From positions 16,731-80,730 of the forward strand of contig CBDCTC010000001.1 of NCBI GenBank assembly GCA_965222125.1: a stretch of DNA of 64,000 nucleotides, given 5' to 3'. Of this stretch, positions 40,967 to 56,455 are shown piece by piece. The notes below the pieces were generated by a model, which searched no databases, was not told where the DNA came from, and worked only from the letters and a program-made list of their open reading frames with translations. Numbering within the stretch: position 1 is the stretch's first letter; every line of letters starts with the position of its first letter. The stretch is from Dehalococcoidia bacterium. GTDB taxonomy: Bacteria; Chloroflexota; Dehalococcoidia; Lucifugimonadales; CAZENU01. Both the position numbers and the translations under genes were made by a program.

Positions 40967-41157
40967 GGACGAAATCTGTCCTCGGTGCGGGGTGGTGGTG
41001 ACCGGTCGAGGCGGGACGATCTCACCAGGTATGCGTCAGCGTGACTTTGTTGAGTGCGGAAGTTGTGGTTGGCGCAGGTACACGGAGTGGTGGTGGGAGC
41101 GTTTGTTCAGGCGGTTAGGTTTTTAGTATAAGCCTCGACGAAACCCCCGCTCACATG

Positions 41158-43058
41158 GCCAAAACCCCCACCTGACATTGTTGGGAGCTGCTTGGTGTGC
41201 TTTCAGGGGGTGTCCGGATGTCGACTTGGGGTGACGCATGACATGATCGGCATCGGACAGGGTCTCGGGTGCCGTCTTTGAGGGTATCGGCAGCGGTTCG
41301 CTGCCAATTGTGGCTGTTGTCAGGCCGAAGAAGGCATGGCCCAGCCTGGCAACTCGGCAGAGTCGCCTACAAACCGATGCTCCAGGCAGGGTCGCCTATG
41401 CCCGATACGGCTCGGCAGCCAGCGCCAATATCCTCTGCCGCGCCCTGAGCAGCAACTCGTATGAGGGATGGCCACGGGCAAGACGGATGATCAACCTCCT
41501 GGCGTGACGCACCACACGGCCCGGTAGGGCGATCAGGGCGAAACGCACCGCCTTGAGACGCTTGCCCACCCACTGTCCGCCCAACACCAGCCGCTTCATG
41601 GCAGAGTTCAAAGCCTGCCCCGTAGCCCCATACGGGGTTGAAGGCCAACACTGCTATCGCCCACCATGCTGCGTTGGCTCCGAACAGCCCCGACGGAAGC
41701 CTGCCCCCGGCAAGGTCACTCTTGAGGACGCCGTGGACCTCCTCGCCCTTGCCACATCTCTGCCTCGACCACCAGATCAACTCATCTCCCGCAATGCTCC
41801 GGTTGGTCACCACTCCGAAGACCTTGTACCAGCCTCTGTTGGACAACTCCATCGCGGGGAACGGAAGCTCCATCTGCCCCTCCATTCCCGGCAGAGGCTG
41901 TTCGATCAACCGCTCCCTGGTAGCTATGAACCGATACTCAGGGCTGTTCTTGGAGTGCCCTATCCAGTTGGGCACGAAGTTCACATCAGCCCACTGCTGA
42001 CCCGTGTCCACACGATGCTCCCCAACCTTGCGGTACAGCGTCTGCCAGTCTTGCTCGGCGACCTCGGACACCGCACGGCGGAACTCCGTCGTCACGTCGA
42101 CCCCAACCGCGAACTCAATCACCCCGAACCGCTCGTCTCTGCCCTCCGCGCAGTACCGCAGCAACTCCCGCTGGTACCCCGCCGTATCCGACCTCAGCAT
42201 CACCTTCTCCACCCCCGCAGGCAGACGGCCCAGCCCTTCAATCAACACTCGTAACTGCTGATGGCCCGCCGGTACATTGCCGTCCCGAAACTCCGAATGC
42301 ACAATCTGGTCGGCCTCTGCCCAGTAGGTGGTCAGCGGCTGGTAGGCCCTGTACTTGTTGTAGCTGTGGAGCGCCTCCTGCTTGTGTGTCTCCACCAGAC
42401 AGGCGTCCATGTCCAGTGTGGCCTCTCTCTGAGGCGAACGGCTCTGCACGAAGCCCACCAGGTCGGCGTTCACCTTCCCCAGACCCTCCATAGCTCCGTT
42501 GGGAGCAGGTATGAATGCTCTGTGAGCTTGCCGCATCGCCTCCTCGCCCGCGTCATGGAACCTCTCCAGATACCGGAACACCGCAGACTCCGACGGCACG
42601 CTCCGACGACGCTCGACTCGCCATCTCGCCTTCAGCGCCCTGCGCTCCCTACTACCCATCCCCCAGGTCTCGGCATGGCGAAGTACCCTGCACAAACCTG
42701 CGTCCTTCTCAAGGAGATCAAGGTCGGACACCGACTCGCCGCCTGCCAAGTTCAGCAGTATCAGCGACGTGATTATCTGGCTGTCCGTCCAGCCCTGACC
42801 ACACTCCCGCAGTCTCACGTGGCGTTCCACCGACGACCTCAAACCCGCTGCTTGCATCAACTCCAGGTACGTCATCAGCCCGGACAGTCCCGTCATACCT
42901 GTCGAGCCCTTCTCCTGCTCGTACTGGAATGCCAGTAAGCCTTGCTTCATAATAGATGCACCTCGTTGGTGATCGGTTCGTTTGCTCAACAACCATCTTA
43001 GCCCGCATCGCGTCGGGCTCCAACGAGGTCTTCCTCTTATCTAGGTGGGGAATCTGGG
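41158..43058 (-). mobile_element. IS1380-family element type B, copy 1 (1,901 bp), transposase frameshifted by a 25-bp insertion
   Basis: Ends GCCAAAACCCCCACCT / AGGTGGGGAATCTGGG; 1,876+25 bp. CDS from ~42950 shifts frame at 41612-41636. No TSD (CATG / TCAC). Confidence 0.9.
41612..41636. repeat. 25-bp REP-like palindromic insertion
   Basis: AGCCTGCCCCGTAGCCCCATACGGG present in B1, absent from B2 and B3 at GAGTTCAA^GTTGAAGG. Confidence 0.9.
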
Positions 43059-47470: not shown

Positions 47471-49346
47471 CCCAGATTCCCCACCTAGATAAGAGGAAGA
47501 CCTCGTTGGAGCCCGACGCGATGCGGGCTAAGATGGTTGTTGAGCAAACGAACCGATCACCAACGAGGTGCAGCTATTATGAAGCAAGGCTTACTGGCAT
47601 TCCAGTACGAGCAGGAGAAGGGCTCGACAGGTATGACGGGACTGTCCGGGCTGATGACGTACCTGGAGTTGATGCAAGCAGCGGGTTTGAGGTCGTCGGT
47701 GGAACGCCACGTGAGACTGCGGGAGTGTGGTCAGGGCTGGACGGACAGCCAGATAATCACGTCGCTGATACTGCTGAACTTGGCAGGCGGCGAGTCGGTG
47801 ATGGACCTGGAGGTTCTGGAGAAGGACGCAGGTTTGTGCAGGGTACTTCGCCATGCCGAGACCTGGGGGATGGGTAGTAGGGAGCGCAGGGCGCTGAAGG
47901 CGAGATGGCGAGTCGAGCGTCTTCGGAGCGTGCCGTCGGAGTCTGCGGTATTCCGGTATCTGGAGAGGTTCCATGACGCGGGCGAGGAGGCGATGCGGCA
48001 AGCTCACAGAGCATTCATACCTGCTCCCAACGGAGCTATGGAGGGTCTGGGGAAGGTGAACGCCGACCTGGTGGGCTTCGTGCAGAGCCGTTCGCCTCAG
48101 AGAGAGGCCACTCTGGACATGGACGCCTGTCTGGTGGAGACACACAAGCAGGAGGCGCTCCCCAGCTACAAGAAGTACAGGGCCTACCAGCCGCTGACCA
48201 CCTACTGGGCAGAGGCCGACCAGATTGTGCATTCTGAGTTTCGGGACGGCAATGTACCGGCGGGCCATCAGCAGTTGCGAGTGTTGATTGAAGGGCTGGG
48301 CCGTCTGCCTGCGGGGGTGGAGAAGGTGATGCTGAGGTCTGACACGGCGGGGTACCAGCGGGAGTTGCTGCGGTACTGCGCGGAGGGTAGAGACGAGCGG
48401 TTCGGGGTGATTGAGTTCGCGGTTGGGGTCGACGTGACGACGGAGTTCCGCCGTGCGGTGTCCGAGGTCGCCGAGCAAGACTGGCAGACGCTGTACCGCA
48501 AGGTTGGGGAGCATCGTGTGGACACGGGTCAGCAGTGGGCTGATGTGAACTTCGTGCCCAACTGGATAGGGCACTCCAAAAACAGCCCTGAGTATCGGTT
48601 CATAGCTACCAGGGAGCGGTTGATCGAACAGCCTCTGCCGGGGATGGAGGGGCAGATGGAGCTTCCGTTCCCCGCGATGGAGCTGTCCAACAGAGGCTGG
48701 TACAAGGTCTTCGGAGTGGTGACCAACCGGAGCATTGCGGGAGATGAGTTGATCTGGTGGTCGAGGCAGAGATGTGGCAAGGGCGAGGAGGTCCACGGCG
48801 TCCTCAAGAGTGACCTTGCCGGGGGCAGGCTTCCGTCGGGGCTGTTCGGAGCCAACGCAGCATGGTGGGCGATAGCAGTGTTGGCCTTCAACTTGAACTC
48901 TGCCATGAAGCGGCTGGTGTTGGGCGGACAGTGGGTGGGCAAGCGTCTCAAGGCGGTGCGCTTCGCCCTGATCGCCCTACCGGGCCGTGTGGTGCGTCAC
49001 GCCAGGAGGTTGATCATCCGTCTTGCCCGTGGCCATCCCTCATACGAGTTGCTGCTCAGGGCGCGGCAGAGGATATTGGCGCTGGCTGCCGAGCCGTATC
49101 GGGCATAGGCGACCCTGCCTGGAGCATCGGTTTGTAGGCGACTCTGCCGAGTTGCCAGGCCGGGCCATGCCTTCTTCGGCCTGACAACAGCCACAATTGG
49201 CAGCGAACCGCTGCCGATACCCTCAAAGACGGCACCCGAGACCCTGTCCGATGCCGATCATGTCATGCGTCACCCCAAGTCGACACCCGGACACCCCCTG
49301 AAAGCACACGAAACAACTCCCAACCATGTCAGGTGGGGGATTTGGG
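47471..49346 (+). mobile_element. IS1380-family element type B, copy 2 (1,876 bp, intact)
   Basis: TIRs CCCAGATTCCCCACCT / AGGTGGGGGATTTGGG; 4-bp TSD GATC. Confidence 0.93.
47579..49108 (+). CDS. IS1380-family DDE transposase (type B)
   Basis: TLDMDA, YQPL, EFRDGNVPA, LRSDTAGY, EEVHGVLKSDL, LPSGLFGANAAW. RBS GAGGTG. Confidence 0.92.
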   Translation: MKQGLLAFQYEQEKGSTGMTGLSGLMTYLELMQAAGLRSSVERHVRLRECGQGWTDSQIITSLILLNLAGGESVMDLEVLEKDAGLCRVLRHAETWGMGSRERRALKARWRVERLRSVPSESAVFRYLERFHDAGEEAMRQAHRAFIPAPNGAMEGLGKVNADLVGFVQSRSPQREATLDMDACLVETHKQEALPSYKKYRAYQPLTTYWAEADQIVHSEFRDGNVPAGHQQLRVLIEGLGRLPAGVEKVMLRSDTAGYQRELLRYCAEGRDERFGVIEFAVGVDVTTEFRRAVSEVAEQDWQTLYRKVGEHRVDTGQQWADVNFVPNWIGHSKNSPEYRFIATRERLIEQPLPGMEGQMELPFPAMELSNRGWYKVFGVVTNRSIAGDELIWWSRQRCGKGEEVHGVLKSDLAGGRLPSGLFGANAAWWAIAVLAFNLNSAMKRLVLGGQWVGKRLKAVRFALIALPGRVVRHARRLIIRLARGHPSYELLLRARQRILALAAEPYRA

Positions 49347-49375
49347 GATCTTAGGCCACGCGGCGGAGCAAAAGT

Positions 49376-54577: not shown

Positions 54578-54579
54578 CC

Positions 54580-56455
54580 CCCAAATCCCCCACCTGACAT
54601 GGTTGGGAGTTGTTTCGTGTGCTTTCAGGGGGTGTCCGGGTGTCGACTTGGGGTGACGCATGACATGATCGGCATCGGACAGGGTCTAGGGTGCCGTCTT
54701 TGAGTGTATCGGCAGCGGTTCGCTGCCAATTGTGGCTGTTGTCAGGCCGAAGAAGGCATGGCCCGGCCTGGCAACTCGGCAGAGTCGCCTACAAACCGAT
54801 GCTCCAGGCAGGGTCGCCTATGCCCGATACGGCTCGGCAGCCAGCGCCAATATCCTCTGCCGCGCCGTGAGCAGCAACTCGTATGAGGGATGGCCACGGG
54901 CAAGACGGATGATCAACCTCCTGGCGTGACGCACCACACGGCCCGGTAGGGCGATCAGGGCGAAGCGCACCGCCTTGAGACGCTTGCCCACCCACTGTCC
55001 GCCCAACACCAGCCGCTTCATGGCAGAGTTCAAGTTGAAGGCCAACACTGCTATCGCCCACCATGCTGCGTTGGCTCCGAACAGCCCCGACGGAAGCCTG
55101 CCCCCGGCAAGGTCACTCTTGAGGACGCCGTGGACCTCCTCGCCCTTGCCGCATCTCTGCCTCGACCACCAGATCAACTCATCTGCCGCAATGCTCCGGT
55201 TGGTCACCACTCCGAAGACCTTGTACCAGCCTCTGTTGGACAGCTCCATCGCGGGGAACGGAAGCTCCATCTGCCCCTCCATTCCCGGCAGAGGCTGTTC
55301 GACCAACCGCTCCCTGGTAGCTATGAACCGATACTCAGGGCTGTTCTTGGAGTGCCCTATCCAGTTGGGTACGAAGTTCACATCAGCCCACTGCTGACCC
55401 GTGTCCACACGATGCTCCCCAACCTTGCGGTACAGCGTCTGCCAGTCTTGCTCGGCGACCTCGGACACCGCACGGCGGAACTCCGTCGTCACGTCGACCC
55501 CAACCGCGAACTCGATCACCCCGAACCGCTCGTCTCTACCCTCCGCGCAGTACCGCAGCAACTCCCGCTGGTACCCCGCCGTATCCGACCTCAGCATCAC
55601 CTTCTCCACCCCCGCAGGCAGACGGCCCAGCCCTTCAATCAACACTTGCAACTGCTGATGGCCCGCCGGTACATTGCCGTCCCGAAACTCCGAATGCACA
55701 ATCTGGTCGGCCTCTGCCCAGTAGGTGGTCAGCGGCTGGTAGGCCCTGTACTTCTTGTAGCTGTGGAGCGCCTCCTGCTTGTGTGTCTCCACCAGACAGG
55801 CGTCCATGTCCAGTGTGGCCTCTCTCTGAGGCGAACGGCTCTGCACGAAGCCCACCAGGTCGGCGTTCACCTTCCCCAGACCCTCCATAGCTCCGTTGGG
55901 AGCAGGTATGAATGCTCTGTGAGCTTCCCGCTTCGCCTCCTCGCCCGCGTCATGGAACCTCTCCAGATACCGGAACACCGCAGACTCCGACGGCACGCTC
56001 CGACGACGCTCGACTCGCCATCTCGCCTTCAGCGCCCTGCGCTCCCTACTACCCATCCCCCAGGTCTCGGCATGGCGAAGTACCCTGCACAAACCTGCGT
56101 CCTTCTCCAGAACCTCCAGGTCCATCACCGACTCACCGCCTGCCAAGTTCAGCAGTATCAGCGACGTGATTATCTGGCTGTCCGTCCAGCCCTGACCACA
56201 CTCCCGCAGTCTCACGTGGCGTTCCACCGACGACCTCAAACCCGCTGCTTGCATCAACTCCAGGTACGTCATCAGCCCGGACAGTCCCGTCATACCTGTC
56301 GAGCCCTTCTCCTGCTCGTACTGGAATGCCAGTAAGCCTTGCTTCATAATAGATGCACCTCGTTGGTGATCGGTTCGTTTGCGCAACAACCATCTTAGCC
56401 CGCATCGCGTCGGGCTCCAACGAGGTCTTCCTCTTATCTAGGTGGGGAATCTGGG
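54580..56455 (-). mobile_element. IS1380-family element type B, copy 3 (1,876 bp, intact; transposase 54818-56347)
   Basis: Same TIRs as copy 2; 4-bp TSD CACC (54576-54579 and 56456-56459). Confidence 0.93.

Follow-up and report, generated by a model that had tools for sequence, protein, structure and literature searches.

A putative REP-like hairpin mini-element of 24-25 nucleotides carried by IS1380 copies and a conjugative element in a Dehalococcoidia bacterium

Three copies of an insertion sequence (IS) of the IS1380 family are found in a 64,000-nt stretch of the genome of a Dehalococcoidia bacterium (GenBank assembly GCA_965222125.1, contig CBDCTC010000001.1), and one of them, B1, bears a 25-nt insert that is absent from the two others, B2 and B3. 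This stretch, hereafter called the window, corresponds to C1:16731-80730 of a 3.75-Mb assembly with 65% GC. The insert is probably one copy of a family of miniature hairpins resembling repetitive extragenic palindromic (REP) sequences, which in this genome would hitchhike on other mobile elements; we hold this reading with moderate confidence. The family, whose members are 24-25 nt long, is described here as a previously undescribed and widely distributed REP-like mini-element.

The insert in the window and its hairpin family

B1, B2 and B3 are copies of a single 1.88-kb element and are 97-99% identical to each other on both sides of the insert, whose boundaries, in comparison with B2 and B3, are unique and show zero duplicated bases at the junctions. 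The 25-mer AGCCTGCCCCGTAGCCCCATACGGG occurs once in the whole window, where chance would predict 0 copies, and is flanked by GAGTTCAA on one side and GTTGAAGG on the other, the uninterrupted 16-mer GAGTTCAAGTTGAAGG being recovered by window search in each of the two empty copies (Table 1). Folded as DNA, the hairpin has a predicted energy of about -7 kcal/mol, with stem arms at positions 41618-41624 and 41631-41637, and its final stem G is contributed by the flanking target. In B1, the first base of the tag that characterizes the family, GAGCCTG, is an A (window position 41611), which makes this insert an "A-variant". The host element belongs to the IS1380 family by its match to PF13701 (DDE_Tnp_1_4) at 3e-32 its length of ~1.9 kb and its short terminal inverted repeats; the ends of this family, termed family 1, read CCCAAATCC... 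and ...GGAATCTGGG, and 4-bp GAGT/GGCC duplications are visible at individual copies.

The consequences for the transposase can be read from the comparison with B3, which encodes an intact protein of 523 residues (54818-56389, minus strand). In B1, the reading frame shifts after ...AVLAFN, giving a 541-residue open reading frame (ORF) with ~78 aberrant C-terminal residues, in which the DDE_Tnp_1_4 match ends at residue 356 instead of residue 516 in the intact copy. A first-pass annotation of the window, made from its letters, had described a 25-nt insert in B1 missing from B2 and B3, a CCCCGTA/TACGGGG hairpin without target duplication, a frameshifted transposase and an ultra-small non-autonomous unit lodged inside other mobile elements, and each of these points holds. 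The insert is not an assembly artefact, because its 14 genomic copies are spread over several contigs and the identical allele exists in a sister genome.

Table 1. Features of the window related to the insert (window coordinates)
Feature	Position	Strand	Basis or remark
25-nt inserted unit AGCCTGCCCCGTAGCCCCATACGGG	41612-41636	+	AGCCTG + CCCCGTA + GCCCCA + TACGGG; comparison with empty sites
Hairpin, 7-bp stem CCCCGTA/TACGGGG and 6-nt loop GCCCCA	41618-41637	+	predicted DNA fold
IS1380-family copy B1 (family 1), bearing the insert	~41150-43058	-	alignment; PF13701
Transposase ORF of B1, frameshifted, with aberrant C-terminal tail	41367-42992	-	translation, Pfam
IS1380 copy B2, empty site at 48885-48900 (-)	47471-49347	+	inverted relative to B1 and B3
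IS1380 copy B3, empty site at 55026-55041 (16-mer on +)	54579-56455	-	intact transposase

The idea of a mobile unit is strengthened by a genome-wide search for related hairpins, in which the insert of B1 proves not to be a single occurrence: ~25 intact hairpin copies were counted, along with ~5 more decayed ones. More precisely, the identical 25-mer is present 14 times, 8 times in family 1 and 6 times in a second IS1380 family, termed family 2, and a further 11 copies combine the same tag and stem with a 5-nt loop (one of them with another stem variant instead), as in AGAGCCTG-CCCCGTA-CTTGA-TACGGGG. All 11 copies outside IS1380 sit within copies of a conjugative element, most of them as in-frame 24-nt inserts, and every hairpin of this genome thus lies either in an IS1380 copy or in a conjugative-element gene.

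The unit that defines the family consists of the single-stranded tag GAGCCTG, a 7-bp GC-rich stem of the CCCCGYA/TRCGGGG type or one of its compensatory variants, and a loop of 5 or 6 nt, for a total of 24 or 25 nt. Over all the collected sequences, 229 of the 1568 distinct occurrences of GAGCCTG have a perfect 7-bp hairpin directly adjoining them on the 3' side, compared to 0-4 for seven control heptamers. The stem pairs covary, with GTA/TAC in 191 cases, GCA/TGC in 22, CGA/TCG in 7, CGC/GCG in 4 and GGA/TCC in 2. Most loops are of the form C-N2-3-GA (CTTGA 69, CTCGA 53), GCCCCA being that of the IS lineage, and among 212 copies with distinct flanks the loop measures 5 nt in 167 and 6 nt in 45. 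Stem intermediates of the G.T and C.A types, considered as a test of which strand is active, number 3 versus 3 and favour neither strand. An Rfam scan of 14 hairpin loci (E<=1) yielded nothing beyond an unrelated thiamine pyrophosphate riboswitch, a tRNA and a weak snoRNA match, and a literature search for the hairpin sequence and its translated peptides found nothing relevant. A helix of the 23S rRNA (C3:304621-304637) has the same 7-bp stem (CCCCGTA-GAC-TACGGGG) without the GAGCCTG tag, which is probably a coincidence.

Filled and empty sites and the history of the IS1380 insert

Sites that exist in both a filled and an empty state are not restricted to IS1380, of which family 1 counts 8 filled and 32 empty copies in the genome. 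Two exonuclease-like paralogues hold the 24-nt unit at different codons, each being empty at the site of the other (RIGPN[PVSGTGQA]LLVTGHPDATGRMP-LDGEE versus RIGPSLLVTGHPDATGRMP[PVSSTGQA]LDGDE), and a third paralogue is empty at both. Among the leaders of three paralogous Rad52-type genes, two are filled at CCCGTA^GGGG, and the third, empty at this position, is filled 60 nt upstream at ACCCA^GGAGG by the CGA/TCG stem variant. In the same way, one methyltransferase copy is filled between motif I and NPPY and two paralogues are empty. Finally, filled copies of the common repeat GGGAGAGGGCTA^GGGTGAGGG occur in G025, a genome of the same order, and in many other genomes (nearly all the genomes compared are metagenome-assembled genomes, MAGs); the repeat is empty in the present genome and also occurs empty within G025.

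In these pairs of paralogues, leaders and repeats, the inserted piece reads GAGCCTG...CGG at A^GG or, equivalently, AGCCTG...CGGG at AG^G; the G's of the target complete the stem, and no filled/empty pair shows any duplication. As these pairs show, new copies arise by orientation-specific insertion at A^GG without target duplication. The tabulation of flanks that the first-pass annotation had suggested did yield a target consensus, the base 5' of GAGCCTG being an A in ~88% of the 212 copies with distinct flanks. The trinucleotide GTA precedes the tag in just 15 of these 212 copies, where it is supplied by the target.

On the coding strand, the same target reads NNC C^TN, that is, a Leu codon split after its first base, which explains the shared reading phase of the coding insertions: among the at least 10 examined, nearly all encode P-(V/A)-S-x-(T/A)-G-Q-A followed by a regenerated Leu, one insertion upstream of a DUF2958 gene being ambiguous. 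In coding DNA, the 24-nt form splits such a codon and is read through as P-V-S-x-T-G-Q-A, and the 25-nt form shifts the frame, as in the IS1380 transposase gene. Every coding insertion runs antisense to the tag strand, even though most insertions in the sense direction would likewise contain no stop; this one-sided orientation may reflect the insertion mechanism or the tolerance of the peptide. In closed genomes, the orientation of the hairpins comes in blocks, without a clean two-replichore pattern (origins unmapped), and the intergenic copies of G025 are oriented at ~60:40 relative to the neighbouring genes.

The position at the centre of a palindrome, which the first-pass annotation had noted for the insert of B1, does not generalize. 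The palindrome TTCAA-G-TTGAA is indeed present at the B1 target, but over 32 independent flank classes from which the insert was removed, the best stem across the junction averages 2.3 bp, compared to 2.6 bp at random positions, so that palindrome-centre targeting was rejected.

Regarding its history, the insertion into the IS is older than the present genome. In the sister species G003, three family-1 copies bear this insert at the identical position, as a "G-variant" (TTCA-GAGCCTG...). Family 2, which is ~72% identical to family 1, has the identical 25-mer (25/25) at the homologous codon (AFN|LNSA), and a third IS1380 family, in genome G004, has the same GCCCCA-loop 25-mer at another codon (YQPLTT^YWHEAG), its AFNLNSA site being empty. 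The family-2 site GAGTTGA^GGTTGAAC fits A^GG, whereas the family-1 empty site TTCAA^GTTG does not, and the IS1380 copies are visibly mosaic. For these reasons, the 25-nt form would have been inserted in a family-2-like IS and then copied into family 1 by short-patch recombination, independent insertion at a hot spot being another route that may have led into family 1; the G-to-A change at the first element base of the window copy would have come later. Whichever route was taken, the coexistence of filled and empty copies in the window, which the first-pass annotation had described as an element caught in the act, reflects old co-existing IS sublineages rather than an event in progress. Besides the allele common to G003 and the identical 25-mer at the homologous codon of a 72%-identical family, this revision draws on the fact that the other copies are all in conjugative-element genes, with several of the sites filled elsewhere too, and that two kinds of chromosomal repeats of this genome, CGTC-type REPs and GGGAGAGGG modules, are uninserted.

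The fate of family 2 is informative as to the effect of the insert. Five of its copies are frameshifted, three of which have extra downstream frameshifts or stops, and the copy at C2:75702-75726 has lost 1 nt of the tag (AGCCTG to AGCTG), which leaves a 24-nt insert and restores a full-length ORF with an extra PVWGYGAA. This downstream decay and this compensating deletion argue that the 25-nt insert inactivates the transposase gene, and filled copies presumably spread to many loci through transposase acting in trans and through recombination. Full-length family-1 copies are also found in tandem head-to-tail arrays, of three copies at C6:1060194-1065835 and of four or more at C6:1143879-1151545, spaced 3-6 bp apart, which suggests that IS1380 either prefers its own end as a target or amplifies in tandem.

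Distribution and carriers

With the strict pattern GAGCCTGCCCCGYA-N4-7-TRCGGGG, whose reversed control gives 0 throughout, the hairpin is detected in 13 of the 41 genomes of the same order, belonging to ten genera (50 copies in G025), and in 34 of the 401 genomes sampled across the class. A scan with one genome per prokaryotic species returns at least 120 loci, most of them, among the matches listed, in MAGs of Dehalococcoidia or Chloroflexota. A few Proteobacteria and members of other phyla share the same 26-mer. It was found in several isolated species of Pseudoxanthomonas and in the isolate Dokdonella sp. MW10, and the MAGs that contain it are labelled Syntrophaceae, Methylococcales, Nitrosomonadales, Brocadiaceae, Bacteroidia and others. 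In these genomes of other phyla and in hairpin-rich Dehalococcoidia, the hairpin usually lies between genes and inside other small repeats, in three contexts: the loop of CGTC-type REPs, CGTCATTCCCGCGAA^GGCGGGAATCC; the GGGAGAGGG...GGGTGAGGG module; and the GTA^GGGG head of GTAG REPs. No insert was found in the ~100 CGTC-type REPs or the 23 GGGAGAGGG modules of the present genome, where the uninterrupted patterns were matched and no hairpin has such flanks.

Two further observations concern these repeats. The widespread repeat CCCTCTCCC-loop-GGGAGAGGG-(C/T)TA-GGGTGAGGG (for instance at C2:179349, and in L052-L058 and L065) has four G-runs with 3-nt spacing, resembling a G-quadruplex, and is near-identical in Dehalococcoidia and Xanthomonadales. 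Short tandem arrays with identical "spacers" also exist, in which the hairpin alternates with 20 nt of flank (L086, a Nitrosomonadales MAG, 81-152) or with ~80 nt (L029, in G025).

In the present genome, the second carrier besides IS1380 is the conjugative element, which exists in three to four diverged copies (C5:1-7000, C6:36000-53000, C6:470000-498000 and C6:695000-723000). Its Pfam matches comprise Replic_Relax, a TrwB-like coupling protein, a Rad52-type annealing protein, DUF3800, DUF2958 and an SNF2-type helicase, and a VirB4-like ATPase, a YqaJ-like exonuclease, a single-stranded DNA-binding protein, a primase and a methyltransferase were recognized by sequence reading alone. Several filled sites recur where the element is found in other families or orders (L007 and L070; L064; L066 and L067), and since they are shared with distant genomes, those insertions predate the arrival of the element in this genome. 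Of the 13 hairpin-positive genomes of the order, 12 also encode the relaxase of the element, and relatives of the element are found in 16 of the 41 genomes. Because this relaxase is missing from G025, in spite of its 50 hairpin copies, yet present in four hairpin-free genomes of the order, the conjugative element would be a vehicle rather than a proven engine. In this genome, the hairpin would multiply solely as a passenger of the IS1380 copies and of this Replic_Relax/type IV secretion system element, and the distribution suggests that both may carry it between genomes.

The possibility that the hairpin and 6 adjacent nucleotides, like a relaxase nick site, might constitute an origin of transfer was dropped, no position being conserved among the copies of the conjugative element. 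A gene that resembles, by sequence inspection, those for reverse transcriptases of the group II intron type (C6:48041-49225) adjoins a family-2 IS1380 copy in a partial conjugative element.

Candidate enzymes, rival explanations and known repeats

As for the enzyme at work, the short single-hairpin unit, the lack of duplication and the short fixed target lead us to infer a nuclease/ligase of the HUH kind that would recognize hairpins in single-stranded DNA and act in trans in other hosts. By analogy with known systems, such an HUH-like single-strand mechanism would be the most likely chemistry, held at clearly less than even confidence, the alternatives being a conjugative-element protein, synthesis from a template or some other process. 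The loop and 3' stem, CTTGATAC, resemble the nick site of pC194/phiX174-type Rep proteins; this is only an idea, since a Rep of this type was not detected and the loop is variable at these positions.

The first-pass annotation had anticipated a RAYT (REP-associated tyrosine transposase), Y1 or IS91 gene bordered by the same hairpin, an expectation that the gene searches do not support; their negative results are limited by profile sensitivity and by the completeness of the genome, ~96%. Profile searches with PF01797 (Y1), whose controls were positive, gave no match in the present genome, G025, G023 and G014, nor in 12 of 22 further genomes. PF04986 and PF01446 (Y2 and Rep_1) gave no match in 12 hairpin genomes, a weak negative as their positive controls were silent. 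Weak PF01797 matches in the very hairpin-rich G437 and G438 pointed to a RAYT-like family with the motifs YFxTIVT, MPNHxHG and LWQRNYYEHVIR...NP. Homologues of it were recovered by protein search in G025, G003, G004 (split), G010, G024, G122, G176 and five others, and the same search found none in the present genome, G002, G420, G360, G393, G023 and G014. These RAYT-like genes are bracketed by a different repeat, the GTAG REP GTAGGGGCGGTTCGCGAACCGCCCCTAC, and the family, which does not track with the hairpin, was rejected as its enzyme. In L199 (G010), L201 (G025) and L202 (G024), the RAYT-like coding sequence itself holds one or two in-frame copies of GTAGGGGCGGTTCGCGAACCGCCCCTAC, between the HUH motif and the region of the catalytic Tyr, and the homologue L205 has no such in-frame insert.

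Several points weigh against the interpretation as a REP-like hitchhiker moved by an HUH-like enzyme elsewhere. No mobilizing enzyme was found, Y1 being absent here and from most hairpin-rich genomes, although an enzyme gene could be missing from an assembly that is ~96% complete. In a set of 36 genomes, 12 of the 30 that contain the hairpin have the RAYT-like gene, as do 2 of the 6 that lack it, the present genome, counted separately, having none. A single hairpin that ends inside its own stem differs from the known geometry of IS200/IS605 or REP/RAYT, and the inactivity of the hairpin in this genome is argued from distribution alone. Besides, the same insert at the same codon of families that are 72% identical would require that conversion acted over a very short tract or that the codon is a hot spot.

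Among the rival explanations, the strongest, which we nevertheless regard as unlikely, is that the hairpin is actively transposing in this genome through an unrecognized enzyme, one candidate being a conjugative-element protein. The Replic_Relax protein (PD-(D/E)XK-like by eye), the YqaJ-like exonuclease together with the Rad52-type annealing protein, or the primase could play this role, with the single-stranded transfer intermediate as preferred substrate. Eleven copies at many sites of conjugative-element genes, with an occupancy that varies between copies of the element, and the co-occurrence of relaxase and hairpin in 12 of the 13 genomes of the order would fit. However, G025 has its 50 copies and no relaxase, four genomes have the relaxase and no hairpin, and several filled sites are common to distant genomes and predate the arrival; in addition, orientation tracks gene direction on both strands of the element rather than one transferred strand, and chromosomal REPs of types occupied by the hairpin elsewhere are uninserted here. 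Still less probable is templated synthesis of the unit at its target site, for example with a reverse transcriptase or a repair polymerase priming on a 3' end in ...A and rejoining by GG microhomology. The overlap of 1-2 bases at either junction (left, A/AG; right, G/GG), a loop length that varies at one point and the reverse transcriptase gene beside a family-2 IS speak for it, whereas more than 200 copies have exact ends, and the inheritance of compensatory stem pairs implies lineages of DNA copies rather than one template.

The two remaining possibilities, both of which we judge very improbable, assign a different meaning to the IS1380 insert itself. If its 25 nt were removed or skipped in expression, as a mini-intron, by translational bypass or by a programmed +1 frameshift, the filled transposases would still work; B1, several family-2 copies and the third IS1380 family of G004 do keep both halves of the ORF open, and filled copies are found at many loci. 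Against this stand the extra downstream frameshifts or stops of three of the five frameshifted family-2 copies and the copy that regained its frame by a 1-base deletion in the tag, which indicates that frame matters; these same two features set the insert apart from bypass elements and mini-introns, whose host gene is functional. The insert region displays neither a bulge-helix-bulge motif nor a matching pair of take-off and landing codons, and no Rfam family matches. Alternatively, the filled state could be ancestral in IS1380 and the empty copies precise deletions, as the presence of the insert in two IS families and two species might suggest. Yet the two families agree at 25/25 positions of the insert as against ~72% in its flanks, the empty copies give a full-length Pfam match and a contiguous AFNLNSA, also seen in the third IS1380 family, and the same unit exists at hundreds of unrelated sites.

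The reading as a REP-like mini-element invites comparison with the REP and REPIN (REP doublet) sequences, which are reportedly mobilized by RAYT transposases of the Y1 HUH type (Nunvar 2010; Bertels and Rainey 2011; Ton-Hoang 2012). Like them, the GAGCCTG hairpin is a short GC-rich imperfect palindrome with many dispersed copies; the two share a 20-40-nt GC-rich hairpin, a short unpaired tag at one end and the absence of target duplication, and both often lie just 3' of stop codons or nested in palindromes, and occasionally within genes. REP/RAYT elements were described in the survey of Di Nocera et al. 2013 (PMC3733652), which includes REPs nested in palindromes, REPs within genes and a CGTC superfamily without dedicated transposase. 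The nested, intergenic habit of the hairpin matches the behaviour of repeats of the REP or BIME (bacterial interspersed mosaic element) type (PMC3733652). On the other hand, REP/RAYT systems have GTAG instead of GAGCCTG at the 5' foot of the hairpin, and their cognate RAYT gene is flanked by the same REP, whereas no RAYT gene is flanked by the GAGCCTG hairpin, the RAYT-like genes being flanked by GTAGGGGCGGTTCGCGAACCGCCCCTAC; the hairpin also differs from them by a sequence that is identical across phyla. Inverted doublets corresponding to REPINs were not noticed in passing, no systematic search having been made.

Another resemblance is with the CGTC-tagged REPs, including dRS3-type repeats of Neisseria (PMC3733652), which likewise have no dedicated transposase and near-identical sequences in distant phyla. 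The two are physically associated, as the hairpin often lies in the loop of CGTCATTCCCGCGAA^GGCGGGAATCC, and rare hairpin variants, GAGCCTG-CCCCCGC-GAAG-GCGGGGG, share the inner core CCCGC-GAAG-GCGGG with them. They differ by their CGTC tag and ATTCCCGC-type stem, where the hairpin has another tag and outer stem, and by the direct documentation of hairpin insertion through filled/empty pairs, including in coding genes and IS. Elements of the IS200/IS605 family (IS608, ISDra2) transpose as single strands by means of two subterminal hairpins, at the left and right ends, and a Y1 TnpA. They have in common with the hairpin a DNA hairpin and insertion beside a short fixed sequence without duplication, whereas the present unit has a single hairpin, ends on its 3' side within the stem, and is accompanied by no TnpA in this genome. 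Miniature inverted-repeat transposable elements combine terminal inverted repeats with a target-site duplication, and no duplication is seen at the filled/empty pairs. Lastly, the Rickettsia palindromic elements (cited in PMC3733652) and the GC clusters and double-hairpin elements of mitochondria are selfish palindromes which, like the hairpin, stand in frame in protein-coding genes, where they are tolerated as an extra peptide. These Rickettsia and mitochondrial elements measure 50-150 nt and are lineage-restricted, in contrast with a hairpin of 24 nt (8 residues), with one orientation and one codon phase, in free-living bacteria.

Small palindromic repeats are common in bacteria and, apart from the GTAG/RAYT type, the movement of most families is unexplained. 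In this context, the hairpin family offers unusually clean evidence of insertion, with exact filled and empty sites in IS, paralogues and repeats, a simple A^GG rule and a unit of 24-25 nt. A bolder and more tentative reading, to which we give rather little credence, would make it the smallest self-defined mobile DNA unit so far observed in bacteria (24 nt), moved by a non-RAYT enzyme acting on single-stranded hairpins at A^GG, and kin to the orphan CGTC REPs. If this were true, the enzyme would explain a class of transposase-less REPs, including the near-identity of orphan CGTC REPs across phyla, and could serve as a tool for writing a defined 8-residue tag into genes.

For annotation, the family accounts for frameshifted IS1380 "pseudogenes" and for odd PVSxTGQA insertions in Dehalococcoidia MAGs. 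It also illustrates a layered parasitism, in which a mini-element disabled an IS1380 lineage, one copy of which regained its frame by a 1-nt deletion, and added a loop of 8 residues to many conjugative-element proteins. Finally, as the same sequence is found from Dehalococcoidia to Xanthomonadales, the question of what mobilizes transposase-less REPs becomes testable.

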